Shown: positions 31,946 to 62,320, numbered from the stretch's first letter. The stretch: DNA of 64,000 bases from Vampirovibrio sp. (GCA_024998755.1 JACEUU010000003.1:1291331-1355330), one strand, 5' to 3'. Translations and numbers: made by a program. Notes: generated by a model from the sequence alone, not told the origin.

Positions 31946-31990
31946 AACGCCCCCGTTGCGATTGCGAAAGTTGCGAAAGTTGCGATTTTA
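31946..31990 (+). repeat. Tandem 9-bp repeat GTTGCGAAA/GTTGCGATT (about 4 units) upstream of the SIR2 gene
   Basis: CGTTGCGATTGCGAAAGTTGCGAAAGTTGCGATTTT, seen directly. Confidence 0.6.
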
Positions 31991-34900
31991 CCCTTCCTGT
32001 TTTAAAAACTGGTGGGCTTTTTGGTTTGCTACAAGGTTTGAAATTCGTTATAATACTTCTATTCTCGTTAATGTTTATAATGAAAGCTTATCATTGTTGA
32101 AATTTATACAACACCCCGCAGATTTACCGCCTGAATTACTGCAAGCCTATCAAGAACAAAAGCTCATCTTCTTTTGTGGGGCGGGGGTTTCCAACTATGG
32201 TGAGGAAATAGATAGCCATTACCATTCATTTGATGAATTATGTAGAGCCGTTTTAGATAGGTTTGATTTATCTTGGGAGTATAGACAATCCAATCTTGCC
32301 CAACAGTTGTATATACAACAAAGGTACGATGAATTACTTGAATATATGGTGGCACAGTATGGTTCTAAACAATTAAATGATTTTATTCAGCAATTGTTTA
32401 CAGAGCCACCAGCCCGTTTGAATTGTTCTCAGCATCAAACTATTTTAAAGTTGGCAAGTGGTGTAGGTGGTAGAATTGTAACCACTAACTTTGATACGTT
32501 ATTTACCAACGCACAGGAGCAATTACCTGAAAGTAAGCGTTTTAAAAATTTGTATGCACCTACCCTACCTATTGCTAGAGAAGAGCATTGGGAAGCGTCT
32601 TCTATTGTGTATTTGCATGGGGGTATGGAAGATACCAACCCCAAAAAACGACTAATTTACAGGAGTTCATGCTTTGGACAAGCCTATATTACTGATGGGT
32701 GGGCTGCCCGTTTTATTACAGAATTAGTGCAACATTTTCATCTTTGTTTTGTGGGTTATAGCATTAACGACCCTATTATGAATTATATGATGCAGGCTAT
32801 TAAAGTAAACGAAAAGAAACACTCTTGTCGTCGTTTTGTATGTCATGTTTCTGATTCGTTTATAGCTGCTAAAGAAGCTCAAACATTATTCAAAATTAAA
32901 GGGGTTGAACCAATAGCATTTAATACTTATCTTGATATGTGGAAAATACTGGATGAATGGCATGCCTTACAGCAACAAGATATTATTACTTTATGCCAGC
33001 AAGCATTTCAGTTGTTTGATCCTAAAGCCAACACCTTAATCCCTGAACAACGTTACGTCATTCAGCATCTAATCACTAAAGAAGAAAAAGAGTTTCGAAA
33101 ACTGGTAGAAGCGGTTACCGCAAAACAACTGCCCATAGGGTTGCTATATGCCATTGGACGCATCGATACCTTACAACGGATGGATAAAAGTGAACGAAAG
33201 AGAAAAAGCCAAGAGGCTGAAACGGATTTCGCTTTGTTTGATACGTTACCGAACTTAATCCAACCAGATTTTAAGCCAAACTGTTCGAATCCTTCATTTA
33301 GCCAATACGGGTACTTGTTTAGTCCAGCCAGCCAGCCGTTACACCCAGTAGCTTCTATATGTGCAACGCTTATTTGTCAAAACATCCATCAACCTGAAGT
33401 GTTGATGTGGGTATTGGAACAAAACGATGGTGGTTATTTAGCTCCATCTTTGGTGAATCAACTTAGTATTGCTTTACAGTTTTCTCAACATGAAGCCATG
33501 CCTGAAGGGCTGAAAAAGGGGTGGGAGCTTTTGTTGTTGAATCAACGGCTATTGCCTCGGGCAATTTCGAATGGGTTTGATTGTTTACCAGATGACCAGT
33601 TACAAAACAATACGCTTGCAACCCGTACCTATTTTACGCAAAAATTACGCCCTTACTTAAAGCTAACACCGCCTTATTACTATCGATTTTTTTTAGAACA
33701 GGATGATGAAAACAATCAACCCCTAGTTTACTATGAAGCAAAAATTGAATTTCAACAAAAGGATTTAACCTTTCACGAACTTGAAAAATGTAGCGAACAA
33801 ACAACAGACCCTGAGATGTTAATAGCGTTAATGGGGATTATTGAAAATACGGTGCATCAGTACTTACAATTGTTTGCTGAAATTGAAAAAGATGAGAGCT
33901 TTATACGTCTTTTTGAAATACCTTCTATCATAAGGCATGGACAAAATCAGGGTTATAGGCAGTTACCGCAGTTGTTTGCTGTTATAGAACTTTTGTTGGA
34001 CAAATTGGTTAAACAAAAAGTAGGCTGGTGTAATCAAACGATGGAACGCTATGCACAACAACCGCATACGTTATGGCATAGAATGGTATTAGCCTACACC
34101 ACTAAATATGAATTAAACCTAGAACCTGCATTGGCACTATTACGGGCTAATCAATACGCTTATATAGAAGTATTTAGCAGAATTAAAAAAGAATTTTATG
34201 AATTGCTAGAATATAAAGCAGACCGATTGCCTGATGATATAAGGCAAACTTGTTTTGAACTGTCACGCCAACCATCGAGAGATTATCAACAACACATTGA
34301 AGTAGGATGGGATAAAAACGAAAAATACAATGTGTTACGGTTGTTAAAAGCTCAAGGTATTGCGTTACCTGATGAAGCCTTAGAAACAGTGTATCAAACC
34401 TTATTGGAAGAACGTCAACAGTATCAACAGGCAGAAGACGCTACAGACCAATTCAAGTTTAGTGCTTATTCTACAGGGTTTACACGGGTTCAGCCCGATG
34501 CGATACCTGAAGAATTAAACGAAGGAAAAACTGACGCTGCGTTATTTGCGTACTTTAAAGGGGAGGGGGTTACCCATCGTTACCACTTGGATTTAGAAGA
34601 AACCTTCAGAGCATTTGTAGAAAAATACCCTGTACGGGCGTTTAATCAAGTATTTAAACCGTTATTGAATGAAAATGCTGCTCAATATAGCAAACTTTAT
34701 TTACGAGCGTTTGATTGGGGATTAGCTGCTTATATTGAACCCATCCATTCTTCTCCTAAGCAATCAGAACCTGAAGCATCGCCTCCTCCTCTGGTTACCC
34801 TACCAGATTTATGGACGTTAGTAGAATCGTTTTTTATGCTTGATACCGTGCATGATACCTGTCAAGCCCTTTACAGTAGTACCGCTTTTATTAGGAAGCA

Positions 34901-36011
34901 GTATAGAGCCTTATGGCAGGAAGATACCCATCGGTTTTGGCGGTTTTTTGAAATGGTGTGGCAACGGGCGGTACAAAAACTAGCCATTAGCGAGCAGAGC
35001 CGTCCAGATTTTTTATCTGATGCTATTAACGCACCCATTGGCAGATTAGTGGAAACATTATTGGATTTAGAACTTCAACGGTTGAATGAGAACCGTATTA
35101 GCACATTATTACCTGAAACGATTACTTATTTAGAAAGTATCCCCACCCTAGAAAACGGTACAATGTTGTACAGCCTGCTAGGTAGCAATTTAGCTTTATT
35201 GCTTAAAATGCACCTTGTTTGGACGGAAACACAGTTGATACCCCTACTAACTTCCACCACAGAACCTGAAAAAACCAAAGGGCTTGCTCTTTCAGAAGGC
35301 TTAATTGGCTATGGGCAGTGGACTGATTTAGTTCACAATCATTTAAAAGAATCGTTACTACAGTTAGATATGGGTGTTCATTTCAACGAACAGAGAGACT
35401 ACCAATTATTTAACAACTATGTATCTCGTATATTGGAATCTTATTTTGTTCCTCAGAATGAAGCACCTGATGTAGAAAAAATAACGCTGATAGAATTGCA
35501 CGCATGGTTGGCTTCCTTACCAACGCCAAAAAGTTTGGATTGTGTGGCTAGAGAACTGGTTGTATATTACAAACAGGTTTCTGTTGATGAAGCTGAAACG
35601 TTGATTGAACAGTTTTTAGCACCACTACTAACGAAGGGGTGGGTTAATACGGTAGATAAAAGAACCCCTCAGCAAACCAGTTGTTTTTTACAACTTGCAT
35701 TGGTGCATCCTAAGTATTTTGGTAAAATTATCAGCATCGTGAAAGAAGCAAACTTGATACTACGCTTACCTGATGAAGCCACATTCCATGATTTGTGTTT
35801 TTATTGGCTTGAAAAAGAACAGCTAGAAGCCTTAGCCCTAGAAGATTTTGAGTTATTTTGCAATGTAATATTAGATTATTTACCCCTGCAACCAATTAAT
35901 ACGAGTACGTATTTATTACAAGAATACTTGTATAAAAGGTTATTAGCACAGCAAACATATCCATTACCGAAAGCATTGGAAGCGTATTTTACTAGAATGT
36001 TACGCAACTAA
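31956..36011 (+). CDS. Defence-associated sirtuin (DSR2-like): N-terminal SIR2_2 NADase domain plus ~1000-aa helical C-terminal region
   Basis: SIR2_2 motifs in DSR2/ThsA order: KLIFFCGAGVS, IVTTNFDTL, IVYLHGG, CFVGYSINDP. The ORF-track start lies in a tandem repeat. The real start is probably TTG near 32094 (LKFIQHPADLPP...). Confidence 0.8.
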   Translation: MRLRKLRKLRFYPSCFKNWWAFWFATRFEIRYNTSILVNVYNESLSLLKFIQHPADLPPELLQAYQEQKLIFFCGAGVSNYGEEIDSHYHSFDELCRAVLDRFDLSWEYRQSNLAQQLYIQQRYDELLEYMVAQYGSKQLNDFIQQLFTEPPARLNCSQHQTILKLASGVGGRIVTTNFDTLFTNAQEQLPESKRFKNLYAPTLPIAREEHWEASSIVYLHGGMEDTNPKKRLIYRSSCFGQAYITDGWAARFITELVQHFHLCFVGYSINDPIMNYMMQAIKVNEKKHSCRRFVCHVSDSFIAAKEAQTLFKIKGVEPIAFNTYLDMWKILDEWHALQQQDIITLCQQAFQLFDPKANTLIPEQRYVIQHLITKEEKEFRKLVEAVTAKQLPIGLLYAIGRIDTLQRMDKSERKRKSQEAETDFALFDTLPNLIQPDFKPNCSNPSFSQYGYLFSPASQPLHPVASICATLICQNIHQPEVLMWVLEQNDGGYLAPSLVNQLSIALQFSQHEAMPEGLKKGWELLLLNQRLLPRAISNGFDCLPDDQLQNNTLATRTYFTQKLRPYLKLTPPYYYRFFLEQDDENNQPLVYYEAKIEFQQKDLTFHELEKCSEQTTDPEMLIALMGIIENTVHQYLQLFAEIEKDESFIRLFEIPSIIRHGQNQGYRQLPQLFAVIELLLDKLVKQKVGWCNQTMERYAQQPHTLWHRMVLAYTTKYELNLEPALALLRANQYAYIEVFSRIKKEFYELLEYKADRLPDDIRQTCFELSRQPSRDYQQHIEVGWDKNEKYNVLRLLKAQGIALPDEALETVYQTLLEERQQYQQAEDATDQFKFSAYSTGFTRVQPDAIPEELNEGKTDAALFAYFKGEGVTHRYHLDLEETFRAFVEKYPVRAFNQVFKPLLNENAAQYSKLYLRAFDWGLAAYIEPIHSSPKQSEPEASPPPLVTLPDLWTLVESFFMLDTVHDTCQALYSSTAFIRKQYRALWQEDTHRFWRFFEMVWQRAVQKLAISEQSRPDFLSDAINAPIGRLVETLLDLELQRLNENRISTLLPETITYLESIPTLENGTMLYSLLGSNLALLLKMHLVWTETQLIPLLTSTTEPEKTKGLALSEGLIGYGQWTDLVHNHLKESLLQLDMGVHFNEQRDYQLFNNYVSRILESYFVPQNEAPDVEKITLIELHAWLASLPTPKSLDCVARELVVYYKQVSVDEAETLIEQFLAPLLTKGWVNTVDKRTPQQTSCFLQLALVHPKYFGKIISIVKEANLILRLPDEATFHDLCFYWLEKEQLEALALEDFELFCNVILDYLPLQPINTSTYLLQEYLYKRLLAQQTYPLPKALEAYFTRMLRN
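32026..32054 (+). promoter_or_regulatory. Sigma-70-like promoter: TTGCTA - 17 bp - TATAAT
   Basis: The -35 at 32026-32031 and -10 at 32049-32054 with exact 17-bp spacing. A 6-codon out-of-frame uORF (ATG 32080, MKAYHC) overlaps the likely TTG start at 32094/32097. Confidence 0.5.
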
Positions 36012-36299: not shown

Positions 36300-36395
36300 C
36301 CCTATGCCACAAGGGCATTGACGGCGGGATGTTCTTTTTGCCCCGCTGGTGGACGGAACGCATCGGCAACTGCAGAGCAAACGCGATGGTCGTTC
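36300..36395 (-). repeat. Family F dispersed element (inverted copy)
   Basis: Reverse complement matches 55434-55530 at ~85%: GAACGACCATCGCGTTTGCTCTGCAG...GGGGCAAAAAGA.CATCCC...GTGGCATAG. Confidence 0.6.
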
Positions 36396-36555: not shown

Positions 36556-36862
36556 AGACACCGAACATTGTGCGAAGCCTCCACAACAGAACGGCTGGTT
36601 ATGGTATTCTCTATCCAAAGCGGTGGCATGACAGTTTGATTGAGACCCTACAATAGCTGTGAAATCTGAGAAGACTTGTAGAGAATTCAAGCAAAAGGTA
36701 GAGTCTACAGGACGTTTTTTCGGCTATATTACGGCTACTTTTTGGCTATGAAAGCAACGAATCCATCAAGCTAAGCCATCAAAAAACCCTGACAAAGGCT
36801 TGCTTATTTCATCCGTATCGGGTAAAATCGGGTATAATCAGGTATGTTATCGGGTATTTTTT

Positions 36863-37918
36863 ATGAATGAAGTCACACTTTCTTTATCTTCCGACCTTGT
36901 CAAACTCATTGCTGAGATTGACGAGTTTAAAGGGCGTTGGGATGCCTTAAAAGTTTTGTCTCCTGAACGCTTGAATGCCTTAAAACATACGGCAACTATT
37001 GAAAGCATTGGCTCTTCCACCCGTATTGAAGGGGTTGCCTTAACAGATGTTCAAGTAGAAACATTACTTTCTAACCTGCAAATGACCTCTTTTAAAAGCA
37101 GAGATGAGCAAGAAGTGGCGGGTTATGCCGAAGCGATGGATCTGGTGTTTCAAGCCTATGCGGAACTTCGCCCCACGGAAAACCATATCAAACAACTGCA
37201 CCAGCTTTTATTGAAACACAGCTCCAAAGATGACCGTCACCGTGGACAGTATAAAACACTCGCCAATCACGTTGTGGCGAAGAACGCTCAAGGTGTTGAA
37301 GTAGGCATTGTTTTTGAAACTACCACACCCTTTGACACCCCCCGTGAAATGGAAGAGTTGGTGCATTGGCTTAACAAGGCTATTCAGGAAGAGAGTTTTC
37401 ATCCGTTGTTGCTCGTGGCGGTGTTTGTCGTGTGTTTTCTTGCCATTCACCCTTTTCAAGATGGGAATGGTCGGTTATCCCGTGTTTTAACAACCTTACT
37501 GCTCTTGCGGGCGGGCTATGCGTATGTGCCTTATGCGTCTTTGGAACATGTGATTGAAGAAAATAAGGATTTATATTACAAGGCGTTACGCCGTACGCAA
37601 TTGACCCTCAACTCAAGCCAACCCGATTGGGAGCCTTGGCTGGGATTCTTTTTGCGTTGTCTAAAAAAACAAAAAGACAGGCTTCAACAGCGATTGGATA
37701 AGGAACGCCAAACCTCTAGCATAGATGAGGCACTGCCGTCCTTGTCTATAGAAATTTTAAAACTGCTAAGCCTTCATGAACGGTTGACCATTGCGGAGAT
37801 AGTGGGACTTACCAACGCCAACCAAAACACCCTCAAGGTAAGGCTTCGGGAGTTAGTGGCACTCGGTCGAATACAGCGTTTTGGCAAGGCCAGAGCAACT
37901 TGGTATAGATTGGCATAG
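36863..37918 (+). CDS. Fic/DOC family protein (AMPylation fold) with C-terminal winged helix
   Basis: Fic motif HPFQDGNGRLSRVL and C-terminal wHTH LTIAEIVGLTNANQNTLKVRLRELVALGRIQRFG. Start taken at MNEVTLS. Confidence 0.8.
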   Translation: MNEVTLSLSSDLVKLIAEIDEFKGRWDALKVLSPERLNALKHTATIESIGSSTRIEGVALTDVQVETLLSNLQMTSFKSRDEQEVAGYAEAMDLVFQAYAELRPTENHIKQLHQLLLKHSSKDDRHRGQYKTLANHVVAKNAQGVEVGIVFETTTPFDTPREMEELVHWLNKAIQEESFHPLLLVAVFVVCFLAIHPFQDGNGRLSRVLTTLLLLRAGYAYVPYASLEHVIEENKDLYYKALRRTQLTLNSSQPDWEPWLGFFLRCLKKQKDRLQQRLDKERQTSSIDEALPSLSIEILKLLSLHERLTIAEIVGLTNANQNTLKVRLRELVALGRIQRFGKARATWYRLA

Positions 37919-38061: not shown

Positions 38062-38265
38062 CAAAGATTAAATAGCGTAAGTTTTCCTCTGTAGGGGTGC
38101 GATTTATCGCATCCGTTTGGGGATTGTGGGGCGGACATGATGAATCACGCCCCTACATTCAACACGCTATTTAATCATTGAATTGGTATAATACAGCGTG
38201 GGTGAAATCGTTCGCCTATTTCCCCTATATTCAACACGCTATTTAAACTTGGAATTGGTATAAGC
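38062..38265 (+). repeat. Family A palindromic element plus tandem family B end motifs
   Basis: TCTGTAGGGGTGCGATTTATCGCATCCG...CACGCCCCTAC followed by two copies of ATTCAACACGCTATTTAA.C.TTGGAATTGGTATAA spaced 71 bp apart. Confidence 0.65.
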
Positions 38266-38532: not shown

Positions 38533-41520
38533 TTACCTAGCAAGACCATATCGTTCTTCCCTTTTTTGAAAGGCAGTTTTTCCTCCTTCCAAAATGCCAC
38601 ATATGCGATCTCTAATCCCTTCGGCACGACAGTCTTCCAGAGGACCAGATGAATATCTAATACAAGGAAGTCCCCCACTCTTATCGCATTCAGCAATAAT
38701 TACTTGTTCTGAATCAGTATTCACAACTAAATTAGGGTTATGAGTAACTAGAAAAATTTGGCGACGTTTTTTTGCTTCTCGGAAATGGGGAACCAGTAAA
38801 GAGTAAACAGACTCATTATCTAAATTTTCTTCTGGCTGATCAACAATCAAAGGCCGAGTGTCATCAACATCTAAAATAAGATAAAGAATTAGTAACACAA
38901 TCCCCTTGGTACCTGGAGAAAGTTTATCCAGTTCAGTGTTGTTGTATCGCAAACCATACTCAAGAGTGAATGATGCCACGGATACTATAGCCCTCAAAAT
39001 ATCATCAGGCTTGCTCGATTTCTTTAGAAAGGTATCATAAACAGCCTGTTCACAATCGAATGCTATAAATAAATCTTTGACTGATTCTATAAGTAAATCA
39101 TTTTGCAAGTTGCTCCAATAAGATTGGAGTTGTTCAGCTATATTGGCTACCTCATCAATGCTCTTAGGAAGAGACGAAAAACGGCGACCATCAAACAGGT
39201 TCTCTATTCTTTCGTTCCAACCTTTAGTATCAAATCGCTGTCGAATATAAAAGCTTAATTGTTGGTTGCCCAGTCCTGTCCTGTTGAGATGCTCCTCAAC
39301 AGGCTTGTAAAGCTCTGTTAGCAAATCATTCTCTTTTTTGAACGACTCAAAAATCTTTCCGAAGTGTACCCAAATTTGGGATAATTTGTTAGTTATAGCA
39401 GCAACGTCGCTTTCCTCAATCCGCTTTACCTCAATACGAAGTTGGTTCAGTTCGCCGTTAATTTTACTTAGCTGTGTCTGCAAGGATTGTATTTTTTCCC
39501 TAGTTGCTTGGTTCGATGAAACCTGTGTTTCCAGCTCCTTCAGCTTACCTTCAGTCCAAAGAACTGTACCCTCACTCGCAGGCTCGTTGCCGAGGATACC
39601 CTGAACCTTGGATTGAATGCTTGTTTTTGACTCTTCAAAAAGGTTACTAAATGTAGGGAGTAATGCAGTTTTTGGGATTAGAATATCATTGCTATTGGAA
39701 TGCACCAGTCCGAGGTCTGAAACCCGCAATTTAATGGATCTAATAAATTCATCTGTATTTGAATCAAATGAGGCAATATCTTGATACAATTCATCGATAG
39801 AAAGAAGGCGTTCCCGTAAAGAGGCAACCTGCTGATTTAAGCTCTCCAAGTCACTTTGATACTTTGCTAAAGACTCGGTAAATATTGCTTCATCTCCTAT
39901 AGCAAGGGAATCAATTTGATCTTTGAACTGCTTACTATTCTCCTCAAGCTCTTGTATTTTTATACGCTTTGCAGGCAGTGTTGAAATCCTGTCTCGGAGT
40001 GCAAGTCTCTCCGTAATCAAGCCCTCTATAGTTGTGACGTGTTCACTACGCTCCTTATAGATCTGTGCAGTTTGACGCGATCTCAGTTGGTTGAATGAGG
40101 AGGTGCCATAGCGCAAGTCTATTGGAATGTGAGAAAAGACGACCTTCTCAACTTCGGTTGCCAGGGTACCTCCCGCATGATCTTCAGAGCAGAGTTGCTC
40201 AACAAATCGTTGCGAAAGGTATCTTACGCCAGAAGAAGTGGAAGGGGCTTGATTGAGAGTAGCCTCAGATTGCTTTCCGTCAACCCATGCAAGGGTAACT
40301 TTTGTGCCATCAAGGTGTTCTTTTGCACGCTCAATAAATGTTTGTTTCTGATCTGATGACCATCCCCCAGCGGCATAAGCAATTAACTCAGCTAGAGCGG
40401 ACTTGCCTGATCCTCGTGCACCTACGATGGATACTAAGCCACGATTAAGTGGTATTTGAGTACTCCCACCAAACCAGAGATCATTTGCGGATGTAATAGA
40501 TACAGACTCAATAACATGAGCATCCACGTGATGAATGGGTGGAACCTCGCCAATGAAAACACGATCGGCGGGTTCTGCTAATATTTGTCGAAGACCATCA
40601 AAGGTTGGATCTGCCTTTATCCAGCAATAACGTTTCTGGGCTGGCTCTAATAAAGTGGTAAGATCATGTGCATCACAGCCATGTAGACAAGCTTTTTGCC
40701 CACCGCATTGATGTAAAGTATCATCGTTAGAAGGGACTCCAGTTTTCCCAAGCCAAAAATTCCTATCCTGCGGATTCGCAGAAAAAATGGCGTGAGATCT
40801 GGCAGAAATATTTATCCGTAAAGCTCCAAATCCACCTTGGAAACTAAGCCCACCAATACCATCTTTTCCTCCTGAGACAATAATAATCGAGTTAACTTTT
40901 AACCAAGCTTGATTGTCATACCATTCGAAGAATGCAGTTTGTTCGATTTTGAACTGATTAACGCCTTCACGGTATGCAGAAGCGTCATCCTGTATAGAAG
41001 GTTCATAATCTTTGCCCAGTCGAGTTATATCATTCTTAGTACAACGGTAACGCCTGCCGTTACTGTACGAAAATGTTAGCTCTTCTAGAGCTCGATTAAT
41101 TTCGTTCTCGTGAGATGGATCATCAGGTGATATCAAAAGATGTAGGTTAACACCTTGACCAGAAGACGTTTGTGGAGAAATACGAAACTCTATGTTGGGG
41201 AATATCTCGCAAATATTTTGGATTCGGTTGTTTGTGTACTTTTCTAAACGTACTTTAGAGTAGTTGGTTATTGACAGATAATCTGTAATTCCAAGCACAG
41301 CAACATCATTCTTCGATTCAATAATTGAAAAATACGCATCCCAGTCACCTTTAAAACGATCTTCCAAAGCTGTGCCCGGTGTGTGTATATGTAAATCCCA
41401 TCGCTTCCACTCGGAACCTCGTTCAATAAACAGCCTTTGGCCTGACTGTAACCCTTTTTCAATAGGTGATTTTAGAACTGTGGTTATCACAGACGACGCT
41501 TCCATTTTCTGCTCCATCAC
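38533..41520 (-). CDS. PHP-domain phosphoesterase fused to a coiled-coil SMC/Rad50/OLD-like ABC ATPase (995 aa)
   Basis: N-terminal PHP motif [10 protein letters not shown]. Walker [15 protein letters not shown]. Central heptad-rich region. C-terminal ABC signature/Walker B/H-loop [16 protein letters not shown]. Overlaps the DUF499 gene by 4 bp, so operonic. Confidence 0.8.
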
Positions 41521-44348
41521 TCAAACTCCGCATTCTTGAATTTCAGAACAGAACAGTTTTCTTTCACATCACGTTGAATCTTATCATCAAAGGCTGAAGC
41601 AGTTTCAGCTCTGAGTTCAATATGTAGGCTAACCTTGACATCGTGCCGTGCTGAAAATTTTTGTACTACCTCATCAACGATTTCGGCAAAGGCTAACTTG
41701 GCCTTGATCGGATCAAGCTCGACTGTGCCATAGAATGAACGCTTTACCTGTAGAGACTCAACAGGCATAGATCCTGGCTTGGTTGAGAACACTCCTAGTT
41801 TAGTAGGAAATGGGCTTACAGTTCCTGTTGCTTCCGATACAGATCCAGGTTGAGCATCAGGATTTGTAGGAATTTTAACAGCTTCGGCGGCAGCTTTCTG
41901 CACAAGCTGCTCCAAAGCTACCGAGGGCTCTACCAACAAAAGACTTGCATCCAGAATTGGTATTGTTTCGTTTCCAAGTGTCAAGCCCAAATACCCGTTT
42001 GCATCCTTCCCATAAGCCAGGCCAAAAAAGTCTTTACTACTTGCTCCAATTGCCAAAGTCTTCTTGAATGTCTCCTCATCCCGCAAGCGTGGCAGATAAA
42101 GATAGTTACAGCATTTCTGCCACACTTCGAGAGCCCCTGCGTTATGTTGAGGCTCTTTCCAGAACCAATTTTTCAGGAGGTTTGCTAAATGAATCGGAGC
42201 CCATTCGCTAATCAGTAATTCGTTTTCTCGCAGCCTTAACTCGACCTCTTTCACAAGATTCTGGCTACCACTAGATAGCGCAATAGGTTCCCAGATGATT
42301 TCGGAAAGTCCCTTCCCTAGTCTTTCTTCCTGAATAGGAACAAGCAACCATCGGTAAGTTTCTCGCACCATACGAACCAGAGCCTGTTTTGTATCCTCTT
42401 CATTCTTCTGTGCTTGCCGCGTTTGATATTGATCAAGATTAAGCCTCAGCTCTTTGATATCTGCGTTGATTGATTGCCATGCAAGCACACTACGCACCTG
42501 ATCGCGGAGTCGGGCAAGACTATCAGAGTCTGCAGCAAGGAAAAGTAAGCGATTTTGGCGAAGACGGGGCTGGTCTCCACGTCCTTTGAGGATTTCGGTA
42601 GCCTTTTCCACCGCTATACTAGCGGTAGCCTTTAAGTAACCTGCATCCAAACCCAAAACCACTAGGCGAAGGCTGGAATCATCCGGTACATCACCACTTT
42701 GGGCAAAAATATGAGAAGAGAATACCCCTCCTCTTAACAGCACTTGTAGTTGTTGTTTAACGAGCGGAGACACGTCTTCGCGATCCTGAAAACGACGCTT
42801 GCGGTCTTCCATCTCACGACGTAAGTTTGGTCGAGTATCAAACCAAAAACGACTATTGCCACTGTTGAGGTAGTGAAGGCGGTCAGTCAGCCGCTTGAGC
42901 GCATCCTTGAAAACCGCTACTTGTTGGCCGGGCTGAACACATCCCAGAATGACCCGCTCCAGCTCGATCCCGCGCACCATTTGTCCACCAGTCGTGGGTG
43001 CGCTACCTAAAAAAATCGTCCGAGCTGCTCGACGTGCTGCCTGAACGGAACCAAATCGACCCTCATTGTCAATATTGACAGTCGTCTCTGCTTTTTCTCC
43101 GTCGATATCACGCTCTAGTACAGGATCCCAACCTTGGGGCAGGTAGTAGATCGCTTCGTTACGAACGTCAGAGTCATATAGGGGGATGCTTCCTGGCATC
43201 ACCAGCAAATCGGTGTTGTTATCCTTCCAAAGCCTGTGTATGACCTTGGCCATTAGCTTTAGGACGCCCCGAGTACGCTGGAACTTATCCAAGGTTGACC
43301 AGTCTTCATACAGCCGATCAAAAACTTCTGGATGAATGGGGTAAGCATTCTTCAGCCGGTCGAAATATCGCCCTTCAATGGTTTCATGGGGAAACTCCCC
43401 ATCGTTTTGAATGTAGGTGTCGGCGAAGGCCCGACATACCTCGTCCATAGCTTTGGGGTCACTGAAGCGAACGAATAAACGTCGGCGGACGATCTCGAAG
43501 GCTTCTTCGGTTGCAACAGGCTTCCAAATGGCCTGAACCCGACCAAAATATTTCTCTAGCGCATCTAGTGCAGCCTCAGCCCTTGCACTACCAACCTCCA
43601 GCTTGGATTCTGGTAGCGAGGCCAACAATATGGCGTTGGGCACCGATTTTAGTGCTTCGGTCAGCGATTGAATAAAGGTTAAATTGCTATCAAACGTGCC
43701 GGCCGGATAGCGTTTCCCTTCATCAAACTGGCGCAGATAAGCAACCAGCTCGTCCATGAGGATGACGCAGGGTGCATGTTCCTTGAGCAGTTGAGAAAGT
43801 GTGTCCTTGGCTGGAGACGTTCCGTTGGCATCCGATTCTTTAATCTGATCGAACGCAGTAGCACCGCCTAGTTGCCAGGCAAGTTCACCCCACAAGGTAC
43901 GGATTTCATGGCCATTACGTTTGCTGGGTTTGCTGGGGTCAAGATTGATACCGTCCAGCACCACCAAACGCGCTTTGGGTAGTTCGGTAATACCTGCTGC
44001 ATCCAGGATAGCGGAGATTCCTTGCAGTTCGCTAGCGGGAACCTCGCCTTTGGCTAAGTGATAGACGGCCAGCATGGTATGGGTTTTACCGCCACCAAAC
44101 GCCGTTTGAAGCTGGATAACCGGATCCCCACCTTGTCCTGTGATTCTTTTTGCCACGCTACCAAGCAACAAGCGCATGCCTTCGGTAATGTAAGTACGTT
44201 CAAAGAAATAAGCAGGGTTCTGGTACTCTTCAGTTGCCGACCCGGCATGAACACGCGACAGATCAGCGGCAAACTCGGCTTGCTGGAAAGTGCCTTTCAG
44301 CACGTCTTCATGGGGAATGGCGACTTCACGCCAAGGTTTTAAGGTCAT
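41517..44348 (-). CDS. DUF499-family ATPase (BrxC/PglY-like)
   Basis: Canonical DUF499 N-terminus [30 protein letters not shown] and P-loop [12 protein letters not shown]. Confidence 0.8.
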
Positions 44349-44367
44349 TGTGTCAATGTCTCCAAGT

Positions 44368-47277
44368 CTACACTTCCAGTTTCATCTGGGTATTAACGCG
44401 GCCTGCCTCGTGCGATGCTTTTTCGACAGCATACCAGGCGGTAATCAGCTCATTATAGAAGCGGGCTTCTTCTGCCCAGCCTTTACGCTCGCATAGGGTA
44501 TAAAGGCGATAAGCCAGTTGGCGAATGGCTTCCGTACGTTCCGGCATACCTGCTAAAAGGCTTCCTGCTTCGCTTTCGCCGCCTTTGTTCAAGGCACGAA
44601 TCATCTGGTGCAGGGCTTCCCACACCGGCGTGTTGTTATCTCTGGCCGGATGCCAGTCATCGGGGTATTCCAGAACTTTGAGCAGGCGCACTTTGCCAGC
44701 CCCAGACTCAATCACACCAGCGTCTTTTAGACCTTCAACACTGGTGCCCTTGGCACGTGCCAAAACATCTGCCTGGCCAAACACGCCAGAAGCCCAGTTA
44801 TATTCATCAAACCAAGCGATGCAAAAGCGGGTATCGGCATCCAGTTCGCCTTCGGCTTCGTTAAAATAATCGTCAATTGATTTATTGATCAGGGTAAGTG
44901 CTGTATGGACGCTCATCGGTGAGCCGTCGGCTTCTAGCACTTCGGTATATTTGCTAAACACGCCCATACCGGGGCCAATGGCGGCTTGCGCCAAATCCAC
45001 TGGGGCAATGGGGCTGTGGGCACCTTTACCGCCAATCATGGCTTCCAACGCTTCGGGAAGTGTTTCTTTCAATTCTGCCAGAAACTGACGGCGATTAATG
45101 GTTTCGGCATGGGCAGGGCGTGGGCGACAGACCAGCACAATGCTGGATGCTAGTGCATTGGCACCAGAGCCGATCATGCGGTTTGCTAGCTCGGTACGCA
45201 TGGGCCAAGTGCCTGTTAAGGCAAAACCTGATCGAATGACCGCTTCCAGAAAGGTTTCCCAGCCGGTAGAAGAGGTGCTTCCTTCTTTGGTTTCGGCCTG
45301 TTTGAAGGCATAGTAAATGCTGACGGGGAAGGCCCCATGAGCTTGCACTGCCAGATTATGCATCGCTTGGGTCATGCCATCGAGAAAGAATTTTTCGGCG
45401 TTTTGCTTGTTGCCGTGGCGGTATGGCGTGGCCACCAGTTCTTCGGCCTTGGGCACAGCTAGTGTACCCAATAATTCGGGTAGCACGGTTTTCAAACTTT
45501 TACGCAGCCAAACATAGAAAAAGTCAGACAAATCAGCATAGCCGATATTGTCGTAATAGGGGGGATCCGTGGAAACGACCTTGTTTTGGCTAATAGTTTG
45601 GGTTTGGGCATCATTCTGCCTAACGCTTGAATCAGTTGTTGCGGGCAAATTATGAAGCAACTTAATTCCCGATTCGATGCCGAGCAGAAAATTTCCAGAA
45701 GAATCACTAAATGGATTTGCTTCTGAAAAATCCCAGACCATTGGTAGAGCTTGACGGCCGAAGGTACTTGTAATTGTATCTCTTCCGGAGTGCCAAGAAC
45801 ATATATTGGACCAATAGTTGGCTCCCTTATCAACCGCAAAAGCCAAATAAACCGAGACAGCATCAGCATAGGCGGTGGGGCCTGTGCCGCCTTGCTCCAG
45901 TCCAAGGCCATCGTCTGCCCATTCGTTGGCCAAGGCGTCTTCCAGCACTTTGTTGCGGGCTTCCTGCACCAGGTCGCTAAAGGTGGTCAACGCCACCAAT
46001 TGCCGTGGCGTGAATAGATCGCCATAAGTCTTTAGTCCATACAACGGGGGAGAGAACCAACGAGGATTCTCTGGCATCGCCACGTCTGGCTTCCAAGAGG
46101 GTTCAGCAATTCGTGCGATTGCTTCCATCTCTTGCGTGGGCTCCAGATAAACTCTCCCCCTAGAGCCTTCTGCAACAATGGCCATCAAGCGAGAGCCCAT
46201 TCGCCCTGCATTTGCTTCAGAATAAATGTAGGCTGGCGCAATGGGCGTATCGGTCATCAGACAGCGGAAATTTGCTCCTCGTGACAGCTTGGTACCTGTC
46301 TTCACCGTTTCGGCATGTTTTGGCGTACCCGTACGGATAGTAAACTGATAGCGGTCGCCTTCAATCACTGGCTCAACATAGGCTTCCTTGCCCTTTTTGG
46401 TGCTTAGGTAAAAGGTGCTGGCCAGTGGTACATCCACATGGCTAAAGGCCGGGTTGGGGCTTTTCACCGTTCTTGCCCAAATCCAGGCAATCACGGTGGC
46501 TTCGCCACCACCGTATTCTTTGGGCAACGTTACCTTGGGGTATAAATGGCCAATACGTTTAAAGGCTTCTTCCCGCATCCAATGGCCATAGCGTCGTACA
46601 TCTTCCGCCAGGCCTTTCGCACCGCTCCAGTCTTCAATAAACTGAGCAGGTTTTTTCTTATCTTCTAGACCTTCCTTTGTTAAAGGGCCAATCGGTTTAC
46701 GCCCAGCAAATTTGGGTGGTATTTCAATCATTGCCTTGTTAATCAGCACAGCTACCGGGTTTAAATCGCTAGCCCAGCTTTCCAGCCCCAACCGTTGTGC
46801 TTCCAGCGGAATCGCTCCACCGCCAGCAAAGGGATCGTGAAAGGCGGGCAATTTCTCGGGGTTAAACAGTTCGGCTGCTTCCGGGTGGTTCTTGTTCAGA
46901 TCGCAGGTTTCACGCCAGCTTTTCCAGATTTCGGCGCGGGCTTCGTTCAGCACGGCTTCGTTATTGGTATTTTCCCACAGCACCAGCTTGCGAATAATTT
47001 CAAACAGCCGTTCCCGATCTAGCTGGGCGGCTTGCTTGTTCATCCCTCGGTTCAGGTGGCGTTCATAGCCGGGGTCATTGACCAGTTGGGCAAATAATAC
47101 CGCCCGTGCTGCAGCCAAAGGCCGTCGTGCCCACCACAAATGCAGGGTAGAAGGATGCCCATGCCGAATAGATTTTTCTCGTGCCGATGCCACATTGATG
47201 TCATCCAGGGGCAAGGCCACTTCAATCAATTTTTTGGGTGCCTTAATGGGCACAGATTTATCAGTAGCAGGTGGCAT
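44368..47277 (-). CDS. DUF1156-family N6-adenine DNA methyltransferase
   Basis: DUF1156 signature [41 protein letters not shown] and catalytic motif [14 protein letters not shown]. Confidence 0.85.
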
Positions 47278-47295
47278 GGAAGTTCCTCAATATCT

Positions 47296-49326
47296 TTAGT
47301 TTATTTCTGGCAGTATTAACGGGCATTCATGGGGCGCCACTGCTCGTGATAATAGCTCATCAAGTTCAAGGTTGACGCTGGCAGCAAAGTCTTCGGGTTC
47401 TTTGCTAAACGGCTGGTGAATATAGAACGGCCCTTCGGTTGTGTCACCGTCGACCAGCACCAACGCCAAAATAAACTTTTCCTTTTGGTTTAGTCCGTAC
47501 AAAATCTCGTTACGGCTCACGGTTATGATGCTTCCATCTTTTTGTCGCCCTTTTACTTCAATGTGCCGCTCTAGGGGTAACACCATGCGACCATCTGGCA
47601 AGCATTGCCTGCCTGGCCGAGAGGTGATATCCCAGCCCACCTTATCCGCTGAGACATCTGTCACTGTATGCCCCAAGGCTTCTTCTGCCAAAAGTACAGC
47701 TTGCATGGCCAATTGTTCCACACGCAGGCGTGCCAACACATCAACGGGAGGGGCTGGCTTGCCCTGTTGTTTTGCTAGGAACCCTGCAGGAATAATCAAT
47801 GCCCCACCTACAATAATAGGCGTGGCAGAAACCACATGGCGCATGGCATTGAGTTCTTTGGTACGTTGCTTCAGTCTGGCAACCAGTTCGTCCATGGTTC
47901 GGCGGGCATTTTCTGGCTGCATACGGGGTTGTTTTCCGGCTTCCATATCTTCTTTCAGTTTTATGTAGCGATCCTCCCAATAGCCAATTTCCTTTGCCAA
48001 CCGTTCATGCACAGCCGCCAGTGTTTTTTCAACCAAATGCTCACGCAGTTCTTTTATCTCGCTGTAATGCTCTGGTACCAGTTGGGTAGAAGCGTAATTT
48101 AATGCCAATTGCTCCAGATTTTGCGTGAGCCAAGGCTGTTGTAATAACTCCTGAACCAAGAGCTGTTGATGCTCATCCAAGGCTTCATAATCCAGATGTG
48201 GCCCCCATCCTGCAAACGTCGCCTTGCCATCTGGAGTAATTTCCACAAACTGAATTCGACGAGAGAGTGTCCGCTTGCCGTCGTCGTCGTTACCGTCTTT
48301 CACCGCTTGGTCTATTAGAAACATCATGCGGGGCGTTTCGCCAGCATCATTGGGATCTAACAAAACAGCACCCTGTTTTAAGTGGTTGCGAGACTGTTCC
48401 AGAATCAAGTCTACAAGCGACTGCATTAGCGGGTGTCCCGGATGAATCAAGCTGGCTTTGGGCTTATTACGAAGATCAATTTCCTTCTTTTCAAAGCAGA
48501 TGCGCTCGTACTTTAAAACCACAGGGTTACGGTTCGCCCGATTTCGTCCTGATAAAACACGATCACGCTCGCGAATGATGCCTGGTACATGACTGATTTC
48601 AAAACGACCTGGTTCACGCGGCTTTAAATCGCCACCCAACTGAGCAAAGGCTTTTTGGAAAAAAGCACGAATAAAGTAAGGCTGGAGCTTTCGGGCTTCT
48701 GCCTTGTCCATTTCTTCTTTCACCTGAAACAATTGCTTTTCTGAAAAAATCTGTTCACATAATGCATCATTGTCAATAAGCTTTTGCAAATTACTTGTAT
48801 CCAGTGCACCAGAGACTTTTTCATCTTGCCTAGCCAGAACTTCTGGGTCATCGCCATAGCGAATAGCTTCAACCAGCACATCCTTAAGAGAGACACCTTG
48901 AAAAACCTTGCCTAGAATGTCGTAAACGCGACCGCCTAAAGCTTTTCGTTCTATCTCCAGCTTGTTAAACAAGGTTTGAAAGACATGACCTTCTGCTGTT
49001 TCACCAGCTAAAAGATTCCATAAATGGCAGATCTGTTTTTGCCCTATGCGGTGTATACGTCCAAAACGCTGTTCCAATCGATTGGGGTTCCAAGGCAAAT
49101 CATAATTGACCATTAGATTGGCATTTTGCAGGTTTACCCCTTCCCCTGCAGCATCTGTTGCCACTAAAACACGGGTTTCAGGATCATTACGAAACAGCTC
49201 TTGCGCCTTGCACCTATCTTCACGCTTGGTCCCCCCGTGTATTTCAATGACCGCTTCCTGTTTGCCTAACAGGGTCCGAATACGATCTGTCAAATAGATA
49301 AGCGTATCCCTGTGCTCTGTAAAAAT
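47296..49326 (-). pseudogene. SNF2/DEAD-type helicase C-terminal half with C-terminal DUF3883 (restriction-endonuclease-like) domain; N-terminal motor half lost at the IS junction
   Basis: Helicase motifs IV-VI ([33 protein letters not shown]) and DUF3883-like tail GWDITSRPG...IEVKGRQ. The first 40 codons of the track ORF ([19 protein letters not shown]...) are read-through into the IS terminus, not helicase. Confidence 0.75.
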
Positions 49327-50485
49327 GAAGTTACGGAAAAAAGGGCAAGGTAAAATAGAAGGGACATTATTCCACCTCTCATAGGATACCCCACCCCCAT
49401 GACTACCTTTGCCGACATCCAAATTCAACAAGCCACCCCCACTCACAAATTCCTAGAGGAAATGAACCAAACCCTACCATGGCAACTATTTGAAACTATC
49501 CTCAAAACACACATCCACCACAAACCCAACGGCAGACCCCCCTACAAACGCCTACTACTGCTCAAAATGAACCTCCTCAAAATATGGTTCAATCTCTCCT
49601 ATGAACAAACCGAATTTCAATGCCACGACAGACTCTCCTTCCGAAAGTTTCTCGGCTTCTCCTTAGAATCCCCCATCCCTGAAGCCACGACACTCGAAAA
49701 CTTCCAACACGAACTGCAAAACACCCCAGCCCAAGAAGCCCTTTTCTTAGCCTTAGACACCTTCTTTCAAGAGAAAAACCTCATTCTCAAAGAAGGCAAC
49801 TTGGTAGATGCCACCTTTATTAAAGCCAATAGCAAACAGAGAAAAAAACCTGAAGACCAGAGCGACCCTGATGCCACTTATGGCTACAAGGGGTTTGGTT
49901 ACAGTGCCACGGTTAATGTGGATGCTAAAAGCAAGTTGATTCGTAAGGTGGTTGTTACTGGGGCCAATGTGCATGACAGTCAGAGTTTAATCCCTGTATT
50001 GGTGGGCGATGAGCAGACTGTTGGTGCGGATAGTGGTTATGTGGGCAAGGAGAAGGATTTAAAGGCATTGGGGATACAGCCGAGGATTATTAAGCGTCGG
50101 GTTCGGGGTAAGCAGCATGAACCAACGCCTGAGTTGACGGCTTCGCAGAAGCGGTTTAATGGGTTGGTTTCTAAGGTTCGGGCAAGAGTGGAGCATGTGT
50201 TTGCGGGTTGGAAGACGGTGTTTAAGAAGGTTCGTGTGTCTTGTCGTGGGTTAGTGCGTGTTTCTGCGGAGATTTTGGGCTTGGCATTTGGGTATAATTG
50301 TCGTCGGTATGGTTTTTTGGTGAGGAGGGGGGTAGGTTTTAGTGGATTCTTGTATGGTTTTTAGGTAATTATGATCCGAAAAGAGTGGAAACAAGGGGTA
50401 TTGTTCTGTTTTTTGAGCATTTTTGGTTGAATTTTATTAAAAAACACTCACTACTCCCACCTGCACACCCTTATTCCGTAACTTC
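49327..50485 (+). mobile_element. IS5-like element copy 3 (1159 bp), no target-site duplication
   Basis: Same IRs as copies 1 and 2. Flanks are AAAT and ATCG. Left flank is mid-helicase, right flank is mid-hsdM. Confidence 0.85.
49399..50364 (+). CDS. IS5-family DDE transposase (321 aa), intact
   Basis: About 98% identical to 13536-14501. Confidence 0.85.
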
Positions 50486-50881
50486 ATCGGTAAATCCAGT
50501 GTTCAAACCTATATTTATGTATTTAAAGTCAATGAGCCTCATCATCGAGATGAAGTTGTGAAGTTTATTGATTTTTCAAACGACGGCTACACACGAACGA
50601 GCCGAAAAAAAGCAAGCAATAATTTGAAGGATACAGACAGAGCGAAAGAACGCTATGAAGAAGTGGTAAACTTGGTTCGTTTTGGGAAAAATAAGCTCAA
50701 CATTTTTACCGAACACGAGTATTACGAAGGACACATAGACCCTAAAAATGGGGCAGATTGGAATCAACGTTCACCGATTGACACCAAACCTACCTTTGAG
50801 GATTTTAGAAAAACGGTGGCGGACTACCTTGCTTGGGAGGTAGAACAACTCATTAAAGGGGAAGACGGCTTGGGAAAGTAG
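50486..50881 (+). pseudogene. hsdM: C-terminal ~130-codon remnant of a type I restriction-modification methyltransferase
   Basis: Frame is open from the IS edge. VVKFIDFSNDGYTRTSRKKASNNLKDTDRAKERYEEVV resembles the HsdM C-terminus (FIDAS...N.L....I..I). Stop lies 11 bp before hsdS. Confidence 0.45.
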
Positions 50882-50892: not shown

Positions 50893-51990
50893 ATGCAAGC
50901 CCAACTAACGCAGTTGGAAGCCGACTACGGCATCGAGTGGCAAGACTATCGATTGGGTGATTTGTTTGAAGTAGGTAGAGGTAATATTTTCAATCAAAAA
51001 AAACTAATCCCTGACTCGAAAGGTATTGCTTTTATTGCTCAAAATGATTGTAATAATGGATTTGTTGGTAAAGTTCAAAAACAATTACATAGGATATTTA
51101 AAGGTAATTCTCTAATTATCGGAAGGCAAACAGGTGTTGTCTACTATCAAGAAAATGAGTTTATAACGACAGATGGCGTATTGGTATTAAGTGCAATCCA
51201 TAACTTTATAAAGAATAATTGCATTGGTTTGTTCGTTGGGAGCATTTTAAGTAAAAAATTAGGTGGTTCCTTTGGATACACCAATACGGTATCCGCCACA
51301 AAATTAAACAAAATCACTATCCAGCTACCCACGATACGCCAAAACGGAAAAACCCAAATAGCGTTTGACTTCATGGAGGCGTTTATAGCAACGCTCAAGG
51401 CGTACCTTACCGTAACAGGCTTAACGGATACCACCCTCACCTCAGCCGAACAAACCGCCCTCGACAGTCTCGACGCTCTCGCTTGGGGGACGTTCAAAAT
51501 CGAAGCGTTGTTTGGAAAGTCTTCTCGCGGTCGTCGTTTAAAATCAGCAGATCGTATAGAGGGTAACCTACCTTTTGTAACAGCAGGAGAAGCAAATGCA
51601 GGAATTTCTGCTTGGATTGGTAATGATGTACATATTTTTTCTAAAAATACCGTTACGATTGACATGTTCGGTTCTGCTAAGTATCGAGGCTATAACTACG
51701 GAGCTGATGACCATGTGGCGGTTGTACATAGTGAAAAATGGCTTCCGCATGCTGTTTTGTTTTTAACTGCGTGTATCCATAAGTCATCTCATGCAGGGCA
51801 ATTCGATTACTCGAGAAATTTTTATGCGAGTGATGCAGATGACTTGACTATCCAGCTCCCCATCACAGCGGAGGGGATACCCGACTATGACACGATGAGC
51901 CTTGTGGTTTCCGCCTTGCAAAAGGTGGTCATTCGGGGCGTGGTCTCGTATTTGGATGCTCGTATTGAAACAACAGCCGAACTGGTGTAA
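50893..51990 (+). CDS. hsdS: Type I restriction-modification specificity subunit
   Basis: Two target-recognition halves (WQDYRLGDLFEVGRG; WGTFKIEALFGKSSRG) separated by conserved linkers ITIQLPTIRQ and LTIQLPITAEGIPDYDT. Confidence 0.6.
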   Translation: MQAQLTQLEADYGIEWQDYRLGDLFEVGRGNIFNQKKLIPDSKGIAFIAQNDCNNGFVGKVQKQLHRIFKGNSLIIGRQTGVVYYQENEFITTDGVLVLSAIHNFIKNNCIGLFVGSILSKKLGGSFGYTNTVSATKLNKITIQLPTIRQNGKTQIAFDFMEAFIATLKAYLTVTGLTDTTLTSAEQTALDSLDALAWGTFKIEALFGKSSRGRRLKSADRIEGNLPFVTAGEANAGISAWIGNDVHIFSKNTVTIDMFGSAKYRGYNYGADDHVAVVHSEKWLPHAVLFLTACIHKSSHAGQFDYSRNFYASDADDLTIQLPITAEGIPDYDTMSLVVSALQKVVIRGVVSYLDARIETTAELV

Positions 51991-51999: not shown

Positions 52000-52842
52000 A
52001 GCATATGGAAAAGGGCATCATTCAAACTCATAAAACGACTCGCTAAGGTCTATGAGGGTCAGCATGAGCCCATTATTTCAGAGGCAGTCTTTGAACAAGT
52101 GCAAAATCAGCTCAAGCAACGCTTTAAAGACAACGAGGCTCGTAAGGTGTATACCCTTCAAACCAACTTATTAAAGGGTGTTTTTTATACCGAAGCAGGG
52201 GAACGCTTTAAGTATTCCAATGCCAAAAAACACCAGAAACGCTTCAATTATTACGCTGTCAAAGGATGCTACTTACCCGCCGAACAAATCGATGAGCCAG
52301 TGCTTCAAGCACTGGCTTTTTTAAACCTCACTCAAGACACATTGAAATCATCTATTGCCAAAGTGATTTATACCAAACAAAAAGATTTCGGCCAACTGGA
52401 AATCCATCTTACCCTAGATGAGACACTCGGCAGGTTAAAATTGCCCCCTCAAGCAGTTTTAAGCATGGATCAAAAAACCCTCATCTTAAGCACCAGCATC
52501 CTCATTAACAATCAAGCACAAACCACTTTAAGAGGGCATCGAAACAAACGGATTCTATCGATTCACGAGATGAATGAACAGTTGATTCAAGGACTTTCCT
52601 TAGCGTGGCATTACAAAACCCAATGGAAGCAGGGAGTCAGCGTTCAAGACATAACCCTCGCCGAAGCATCAGGGAAAAGAAAAATACAAAAGTATCTAGC
52701 CTTAACGCTTCTGTCCCCTCCGATTATTGAATCAATACTCGACTACCAAAACCCCCAGCAACTCACGCTGACCCAGCTAATCGATCTCGCTGAAAGCACC
52801 TCGGATTTTGAACAACAAGCACTGGCTTGGTTTGGGGCATAA
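52000..52842 (+). pseudogene. Degenerate C-terminal fragment of a large serine recombinase
   Basis: Frame opens 10 bp after the hsdS stop: SIWKRASFKLIKRLAKVYEGQHEPIISEAVFEQVQNQLK resembles the recombinase domain, but the zinc-ribbon cysteines are lost and there is no catalytic N-terminal domain. Confidence 0.5.
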
Positions 52843-62318: not shown

Positions 62319-62320
62319 CA

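Follow-up and report, generated by a model that had tools for sequence, protein, structure and literature searches.

Four long open reading frames (ORFs), all on the minus strand and together spanning 38533-49446, lie in a 64-kb stretch of the 1.49-Mb contig JACEUU010000003.1 (chromosome) of a Vampirovibrio sp. metagenome-assembled genome (MAG; GCA_024998755.1). We refer to this whole 64-kb stretch as the window and count all positions from its first nucleotide. Numbered in transcription order, the genes encode proteins of 716, 969, 943 and 995 amino acids, genes 1 and 2 are separated by 18 bp and genes 2 and 3 by 19 bp, genes 3 and 4 overlap by 4 bp, and the products of genes 1, 3 and 4 have NCBI entries with 100% identity on the same contig. 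An earlier note, made from the sequence alone, had described this tight packing, in agreement with the ORF coordinates found here, and had read the four genes as one defence-like operon. The locus is neither a novel nor a conserved four-gene system; it is a degraded copy of the known Hma defence system (genes 1 to 3) to which an accessory gene of the TrlF family (gene 4) has been appended.

The two central genes are complete. Gene 2, hmaB (44368..47277, minus strand), encodes a full-length DUF1156 N6-adenine DNA methyltransferase of 969 amino acids that matches the PADLOC HmaB profile with 1668 bits over positions 3-966 of 967, and in which Pfam finds DUF1156 (107 bits) and MethyltransfD12. 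The motifs DPFAGGG and DPPY lie at residues 148 and 571. Gene 3, hmaC (41517..44348, minus strand), encodes a full-length DUF499 STAND/ORC-like ATPase of 943 amino acids, with 1467 bits to the PADLOC HmaC profile (positions 1-940 of 941), 138 bits to Pfam DUF499 and the Walker A motif GGGKTH at residue 85; its homologues are found in many phyla at 64-77% identity. Both the DPPY-bearing DUF1156 methyltransferase and the DUF499 ATPase had been correctly named from sequence.

On these family matches, together with that of gene 1 to HmaA (1048 bits), we assign genes 1 to 3 to the Hma system, also known as the Type-1 DUF499-centred BREX-related (BR) restriction-modification-like (RM-like) system. 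An assignment to BREX or DISARM was rejected, since the core markers of those systems are never the best PADLOC matches: HmaC has no match to BrxC, PglZ and DrmABC have no match among the four proteins, and gene 1 scores 141 bits with BrxHII and 121 bits with DrmD. Hma was named in 2021 from 1,638 instances in 26 phyla (PMC8565338), and a 2026 survey finds the triad as the Type-1 DUF499-centred system in 2,446 taxa (PMC12839542). HmaA alone protects E. coli from T4, for which its C-terminal PD-(D/E)xK nickase and helicase motif VI are needed (PMC11232893). The triad of DUF3883 helicase, DUF1156 and DUF499 genes was thus rightly recognized as RM-like and BREX-related, and its description as uncharacterised and merely predicted is superseded by the naming of Hma and the experimental demonstration of anti-T4 defence by HmaA. 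The window shares with other Hma loci all three protein families (an N6-methyltransferase of the DUF1156 family with DPPY, a DUF499 ATPase, and a helicase with a C-terminal NOV_C PD-(D/E)xK nuclease), near full-length HmaB and HmaC matches and the co-directional A-B-C order. It differs from them in that hmaA is missing its first ~505 codons, which specify the SNF2 ATPase lobe, and adjoins an insertion sequence (IS); in that no genes are inserted between A and B or between B and C, unlike its closest relatives with their HEC-02-like embedded pair; and in that a TrlF gene is joined at the 3' end.

Gene 1, which we call hmaA' (47296..49329, minus strand; the 716-codon ORF extends over 47296-49446), is the 5'-truncated remnant of an Hma SNF2 helicase-nuclease gene. 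Its product matches the PADLOC HmaA profile only over positions 516-1173 of 1176, and the match begins at residue 40. Pfam recognizes Helicase_C and NOV_C/DUF3883 (63.8 bits for NOV_C) and no other domain, with SNF2-rel_dom, DEAD and ResIII all unmatched. When the 1175-amino-acid HmaA homologue of a related Hma locus (L081) is aligned by tblastn, residues 506-1171 match at 69% identity with the alignment ending at 49329, and residues 1-505 have no match anywhere in the 64 kb, so that the lost half lies beside neither of the other two IS copies in the window. Among the 120 best database homologues of gene 1, 118 are 1148-1183 amino acids long and carry the SNF2 domain. Gene 1 is the C-terminal 57% of HmaA; the N-terminal ~505 amino acids including the SNF2 ATPase lobe, encoded by the 5' 43%, are gone, and a complete Swi2/Snf2 core (both RecA lobes with motifs I-VI, in proteins of ~1150-1180 amino acids) is not found. 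The RecA2/Helicase_C lobe is retained, as are the middle of the protein and, at the C-terminus, the NOV_C PD-(D/E)xK nuclease. The earlier reading of gene 1 as an SNF2 helicase with a C-terminal DUF3883 domain holds for the NOV_C/DUF3883 and Helicase_C domains and fails for the SNF2 lobe. The remnant has an open frame with no internal stops (about 677 codons from the start at 49326 taken in the earlier note, 716 as an ORF), and motif VI as well as the nuclease residues D567 and E591-V-K593 (ExK) are present. Because these motifs have been kept in an uninterrupted frame, the truncation looks recent.

Where hmaA breaks off, an IS5-family element (49326..50487, plus strand) begins directly with its terminal inverted repeat; its transposase ORF (49399-50364) carries the Pfam domains DDE_Tnp_1 and DUF772. 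The element has terminal inverted repeats, its ends reading GAAGTTACGG...CCGTAACTTC. It is one of three copies in the window, each ~1.16 kb long and 97-99% identical, at 13464-14622 (plus strand), ~25583-26745 (minus strand) and 49326-50487 (plus strand); the second copy carries a short insertion close to its left end. Three copies so similar within 64 kb indicate recent transposition activity in this Vampirovibrio genome. On the far side of the third copy the frame is open from the first base and encodes the last ~130 amino acids of a type IIG restriction endonuclease-methyltransferase (50489-50881, plus strand; PADLOC REase_MTase_IIG, 150 bits over positions 580-715 of 721). A single IS copy parts two divergent defence operons, hmaA' and the type IIG restriction-modification (RM) genes, both of which are 5'-decapitated, and the arrangement is what an IS-associated deletion or rearrangement leaves behind. 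The first IS copy is flanked by a target-site duplication (TATT/TATT) and the third by the mismatched sequences AAAT and ATCG; this mismatch is suggestive of rearrangement and consistent with it, and is not decisive given the uncertain duplication length of this IS family.

Gene 4, a trlF-like gene (38533..41520, minus strand), encodes a 995-amino-acid PHP phosphoesterase fused to an SMC/RecN/Rad50-like ABC ATPase. The product matches the NCBIfam model TrlF_fam_ATP (NF045780) with 612.4 bits against a cutoff of 350 and over the entire profile (positions 1-944 of 944). The PHP domain occupies residues ~34-330 and is followed by a Walker A motif at 367-374, a coiled-coil insertion of ~480 amino acids and the signature motif at 867-873. 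In an alignment of 30 sequences the PHP-type motifs DLH(I/V)HTP, NxEFR, NxHxL and HGxDAH are invariant, as are the ABC motifs GxxGSGKS (Walker A), LSPGTKG (signature), DQPExNLD (Walker B) and THNPN (H-loop), and the window protein has all of them, the PHP-type motifs in the form DLHIHTP, NIEFR, NLHLL and CLHGCDAH.

Sequence profiles reach the ATPase more readily than the N-terminal domain. A Pfam search, which the earlier note had proposed as a check, recovers DUF1156, DUF499 and NOV_C/DUF3883 in the first three products and leaves the PHP model (PF02811) unmatched on gene 4, even when residues 31-335 are searched in isolation at E = 10; a profile of the N-terminal domain finds no match among PDB sequences, and a PDB sequence search with the whole protein finds marginal Rad50 matches only. 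Because these searches miss the N-terminal domain, its assignment is made through predicted structure, motifs and the NCBIfam family. An AlphaFold model of the whole protein (predicted local distance difference test, pLDDT, 77.6) is matched by Foldseek to the heads with coiled coils of JetC, Rad50, SMC, MukB, RecN and LmuB, with E values down to 2e-10 (JetC 2e-10, Rad50 3e-9). For a separate model of the N-terminal domain (pLDDT 72) the matches are PHP domains, that of RNase AM with E 6e-7 (probability 1.0) and that of Pol III alpha with E 5e-4, and the N-terminus of gene 4 is accordingly modelled as a PHP fold. Of the SMC/OLD-like ABC ATPase fused to a PHP domain that had been proposed, the PHP and SMC-like folds are borne out by the structure models, and OLD-type ATPases are not the closest matches.

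Gene 4 thus encodes a full-length TrlF-family protein, with a PHP domain and an SMC-like ABC ATPase, that is a distant architectural relative of Ppl, an uncharacterised single-gene ATPase-PHP anti-phage system that impairs T7 (PMC11482910). The earlier statement that the fourth gene belongs to no named system does not hold, since it is a member of a curated family and has the architecture of a validated single-gene system. Like Ppl, the protein combines in one polypeptide of ~900-1000 amino acids an N-terminal PHP domain and an ABC ATPase into which a long helical segment is inserted, and both families are stand-alone and mobile. It differs from Ppl in that the two align well only over the C-terminal ~130 residues and in that it falls in the separate TrlF family. 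We considered gene 4 as a bona fide Ppl and rejected it: the match is partial and far under the family cutoff, at 125 bits against 1000 for the NCBIfam model Ppl_antiphage (NF042955) and 102 bits for PADLOC Ppl (PDLC02208), best over residues 862-990, where true Ppl proteins reach 420-450 bits at full length.

The name TrlF comes from the temperature restriction locus trlR-trlF-trlG of Photorhabdus, in which trlF is a large "histidinol phosphatase" gene with no phenotype assigned (PMC7554251). The window protein belongs to the same family by the curated cutoff, and the Photorhabdus protein is likewise a large protein of the histidinol-phosphatase (PHP) type. Unlike the Photorhabdus locus, no trlR or trlG partner is found in the window or at the 80 closest TrlF loci; downstream of gene 4 there is a non-coding stretch of ~600 bp and then a convergent Fic gene, and AlbA_2 and HATPase_c_4 are outside the 25 commonest Pfam families among 123 ORFs flanking the 80 TrlF loci. 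The non-coding stretch contains short direct repeats, AATAGCGTGTTGAAT[AG]TAGGGG, at about 38150-38245. With SbcCD/Mre11-Rad50, Wadjet JetC, Lamassu LmuB and RecN the window protein shares the fold of an ABC head with coiled coils and, by analogy, may share a mode of action in which a metal-dependent nuclease works with an ATP-gated clamp. Its predicted nuclease is a fused PHP domain rather than a separate effector such as the calcineurin-like Mre11/SbcD, the Toprim protein JetD or LmuA, and it further differs from these SMC-like ATPases in sequence (10-17% identity) and in that no partner subunits are present.

The junction of hmaC with trlF is compact. The likely trlF start codon (ATG, 41517-41515) overlaps the hmaC stop codon (TGATG) and is preceded by GGAG 8 nt upstream, and trlF is on this account probably co-transcribed and translationally coupled with hmaC. 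The junction is repeated base for base in a 3.9-kb contig from another sample (L082) that is 97.4% identical to the window in DNA, and in this sister strain only. The hmaC-trlF junction is thus real and lineage-specific. Between the two strains hmaC has a ratio of nonsynonymous to synonymous substitution rates (dN/dS) of 0.20, the 3' part of hmaB one of 0.01 and the 5' part of trlF one of 0.13, the last from 17 substitutions only. These ratios point to purifying selection on all three, which possibly predates the truncation.

We next consider whether TrlF and Hma travel together. For TrlF, one genome per species was scanned and the best 80 of at least 579 stretches, at 32-42% identity, were analysed with flanks of up to 10 kb. 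None of the 80 has a homologue of HmaA or HmaB within 10 kb, and 79 have no Hma component of any kind nearby. Clustering of the neighbours, including those downstream on the same strand, reveals no conserved partner, the largest families being integrases (8 loci), hsdM (6) and hsdR (4), and Pfam finds integrases, other AAA_15/21 ATPases, HipA, TraG/TraI and transposases in the 123 flanking ORFs. Because there is no conserved neighbour and the contexts are those of mobile elements, TrlF resembles Ppl in its behaviour as a mobile module of one gene that stands alone. The one exception is a Candidatus Marinacidobacterales MAG (L032, 7486-13009), where an N-terminally truncated HmaC-like DUF499 ORF of 750 amino acids lies directly upstream of a TrlF gene with 33% identity to that of the window; this locus has no DUF1156 methyltransferase gene, and a DDE transposase lies downstream. 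Here a DUF499 gene and a TrlF gene have come to adjoin a second time, independently and again in a degenerate state.

The converse census covered 80 metagenomic Hma loci whose HmaC proteins are 54-68% identical to that of the window. The order A-B-(inserts)-C is kept in all 80, and none has TrlF after hmaC, with at least 1 kb of sequence past hmaC available in 59 loci and at least 3 kb in 41; a same-strand ORF directly past hmaC is present in 17 of the 80 and is never TrlF. With no HmaA or HmaB near TrlF and no TrlF behind hmaC, the conserved co-occurrence of the PHP-ATPase gene with the triad that the single-operon interpretation had implied is not observed in either census, and this contradicts that interpretation. 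Inserts of more than 300 bp occupy 26 of 52 B-C gaps and 23 of 39 A-B gaps, which fits the published figure of embedded genes in 62.7% of 1,485 Hma systems, where ABC ATPases are the commonest cargo (bioRxiv 10.1101/2024.01.29.577857). The same study found that 96.7% of embedded genes run in the direction of their host system, suggested co-regulation and showed that the embedded systems HEC-01 to -09, Septu and PARIS are active when cloned alone.

The three closest intact Hma arrangements (L081, L163/L164 and L165) have HmaA proteins of 1175-1183 amino acids, 69-73% identical to the remnant, and the order HmaA-HmaB-[AAA_21 ATPase and a 170-180-amino-acid protein]-HmaC; the embedded pair of L081 matches HEC-02. 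TrlF is absent past hmaC in all three. In L081 (11239-12999) an SIR2 protein is encoded there instead (PADLOC PDC-S65, 681 bits), and in L163-L165 paired DUF1802 genes and a resolvase lie upstream of hmaA; these neighbours are further defence gene candidates. The best non-self homologue of the window TrlF is 45% identical, compared with 77% for HmaC and 69-73% for HmaA'.

PHP-ABC genes of another kind do enter Hma loci. A bona fide Ppl gene (PADLOC 420-450 bits, full length) is found between hmaB and hmaC in four of the 80 loci (L086 1465-4434; L101 5592-8732; L103 5918-8731; L140 295-3168), and Ppl, along with Septu and PARIS, has been reported in hma loci of Halomonas (PMC11232893). These embedded Ppl genes belong to another PHP-ABC family than the window TrlF and occupy another position. 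Because Ppl occurs in these four loci and a TrlF gene adjoins the DUF499 gene of the Marinacidobacterales MAG, PHP-ABC genes are recurrent, infrequent and non-obligate passengers of Hma, an instance of the known "embedded defence" phenomenon (10.1101/2024.01.29.577857; PMC12839542).

Taken as a whole, the locus is best explained as two adjacent defence modules, of which one (Hma) has decayed, rather than as a single four-gene system, and we place the probability of this reading at about 0.75. Several observations weigh against it. The overlapping stop and start codons and the Shine-Dalgarno-like GGAG inside hmaC look like those of a genuine operon partner and not of a casual neighbour, and the four embedded Ppl genes and the Marinacidobacterales pair suggest that PHP-ABC genes recur with Hma components beyond chance expectation. 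Base composition at third codon positions (GC3) does not split the modules cleanly: with values of.335 for TrlF,.349 for HmaA',.460 for HmaC and.513 for HmaB, HmaA' is near TrlF and the host genes, and HmaB and HmaC are higher, so that composition is ambiguous as a sign of separate origins and was set aside. As the MAG contains three nearly identical copies of the IS, the join of hmaA', IS and type IIG gene could be an assembly chimera, and the missing 5' half of hmaA may sit elsewhere in the genome; even so, the gene would be interrupted by the IS. Finally, the loss of HmaA' function is something we infer, for a frame of 677 open codons with motif VI and the nuclease triad intact, and the isolated nuclease domain of a characterised HmaA nicks plasmid DNA in vitro. 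Hardly any credence is due to the idea that helicase-nuclease, methylase, DUF499 ATPase and PHP-ABC effector make up a truly novel system of four components, caught just after the IS hit: the four ORFs are indeed tightly packed on one strand and all come from defence-type families, but the 160 surveyed loci hold no second example outside the same lineage, the three closest intact Hma operons carry another, embedded pair and no fourth gene, and the divergence of gene 4 (45% best identity) is unlike that of genes 1 to 3 (69-77%).

Alternatively, the two modules could be functionally related, with TrlF as an accessory to Hma or its backup effector in this lineage; it would be expressed together with hmaC and set off by inhibition or failure of Hma, by analogy with what has been proposed for OLD-ABC and PARIS-like modules in BREX and BR systems; in a variant of this idea TrlF might compensate for the lost HmaA nuclease. 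The conservation of the TGATG overlap and GGAG in the sister strain, the Ppl genes between hmaB and hmaC, the HmaC-like gene directly upstream of TrlF in the Marinacidobacterales MAG and the suggested co-regulation of co-oriented embedded genes would all fit such a role, as would the auxiliary ABC-ATPase-linked nucleases found in at least 1242 BREX/BR taxa (PMC12839542). We nevertheless consider it unlikely, as the 79 TrlF loci with no Hma component and no conserved neighbour argue that TrlF is independent of Hma, all 80 related Hma loci do without TrlF, known embedded systems work when cloned alone, and the Marinacidobacterales locus is itself degenerate, with a truncated DUF499 gene, no methyltransferase and an adjoining transposase. 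Also unlikely is the broader notion that the independent capture of two PHP-ABC families by Hma-type operons (Ppl between B and C; TrlF past hmaC in the window and in the Marinacidobacterales MAG) reflects functional coupling, with a TrlF or Ppl clamp-nuclease that would sense the state of HmaB and HmaC and stand in as backup or replacement effector. If that were true, the TrlF family would be a new single-gene anti-phage system, and the temperature-restriction phenotype of Photorhabdus would possibly be linked to abortive defence. It is also conceivable, and in our view quite improbable, that a reduced Hma still functions, with translation of HmaA' beginning anew at or within the IS end and the product acting as a nuclease with HmaB and HmaC but with no SNF2 ATPase activity. 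The open frame of 677-716 codons with intact motif VI and D/ExK residues would permit this; a motif I mutant of HmaA (T136A) defends better, not worse, and the nicking by the C-terminal domain noted above points the same way (PMC11232893), as do the dN/dS values of 0.20 for hmaC and 0.01 for the 3' part of hmaB, which may however predate the truncation. Against it, nothing is left of the RecA1 lobe and the N-terminal region, and with them the ATP site has gone, the motif VI mutant R610A abolishes defence (PMC11232893), a sign that the motor matters, and the native promoter and start have been lost. Promoter-like matches in the region are below the expectation from shuffled sequence (12 found against 16.9 +/- 4.6), in a scan that is uninformative on the present transcription of hmaB-hmaC-trlF.

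Under the preferred reading of two adjacent modules, their working would be as follows. In an intact Hma system HmaB is thought to methylate host adenines and HmaC, the DUF499 ATPase, to scan and to assemble the complex, and HmaA, an SNF2 translocase with a PD-(D/E)xK nuclease, restricts foreign DNA. In the window the first ~505 codons of hmaA have been lost along with its start and native promoter; because the RecA1 lobe, the ATP site and this promoter are missing, restriction by this Hma copy has most likely been lost or crippled, and hmaB and hmaC would persist as a methylase-ATPase remnant. TrlF, which elsewhere occurs alone in association with integrases, transposases and conjugation genes, has in this Vampirovibrio lineage become attached behind hmaC. 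It would act autonomously, as a dimeric, ATP-gated coiled-coil DNA clamp or sensor whose PHP domain cuts nucleic acid, and may represent a single-chain analogue of SbcCD/Mre11-Rad50 in parallel to Ppl.

The four genes are part of a small defence island at ~31-52 kb, in keeping with the earlier note, which had placed them in an island with SIR2, Fic, hsdS and toxin-antitoxin remnants. At lower coordinates, a DUF1643 protein and then a 1351-amino-acid SIR2-domain protein are encoded at 31198-36011 (plus strand). The latter is Dsr1-like by PADLOC, but only its first ~290 residues account for the match (199 bits over profile positions 2-229 of 1248); the other ~1000 belong to no assigned family. 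A Fic/DOC protein that ends in a winged helix-turn-helix follows at 36800-37918 (plus strand; PADLOC SoFic, 169 bits, nearly full length), its gene being the one convergent with trlF. Beyond the four genes, the IS and the type IIG remnant, an apparently intact type IIG specificity subunit is encoded at 50893-51990 (plus strand; PADLOC Specificity_II, 112 bits; Pfam Methylase_S). A 247-amino-acid ORF (52099-52842, plus strand) lies at the island edge adjoining rplT; this ORF and a 640-amino-acid ORF at 15375-17297 (minus strand) have no Pfam or PADLOC match. Outside the island, in the first 30 kb and beyond 53 kb, the window holds housekeeping genes such as those for ribonucleotide reductase, sigma-70 and RNase HII, purL, otsAB, rplT and infC.

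We further note several families of 75-85-nt intergenic repeats. The first is found at 657-731, 5648-5722 and 62249-62323, and further pairs occur at 23464-23548 and 27170-27254, 36313-36395 and 55434-55516, 6323-6396 and 12224-12297, and 3024-3101 and 9409-9486. One family contains a GC-rich hairpin, GGGCGGATGCAATCCGCCC. These repeats may be elements scattered through the window that resemble repetitive extragenic palindromes or miniature inverted-repeat transposable elements (REP/MITE-like), or terminators.

The value of this analysis is chiefly corrective, in that an apparently novel four-gene operon is a known Hma system decayed beside an IS together with a stand-alone gene of a known family, and the window adds little beyond what a family-level survey of TrlF would give. 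It is also a clear case of defence-island turnover, with one IS copy between two decapitated defence operons in a MAG of the predatory Vampirovibrio. TrlF itself is widespread, with relatives encoded in at least 579 candidate stretches, and its Ppl architecture, its mobile context and its occasional position beside a DUF499 gene make the family a reasonable candidate for cloning.

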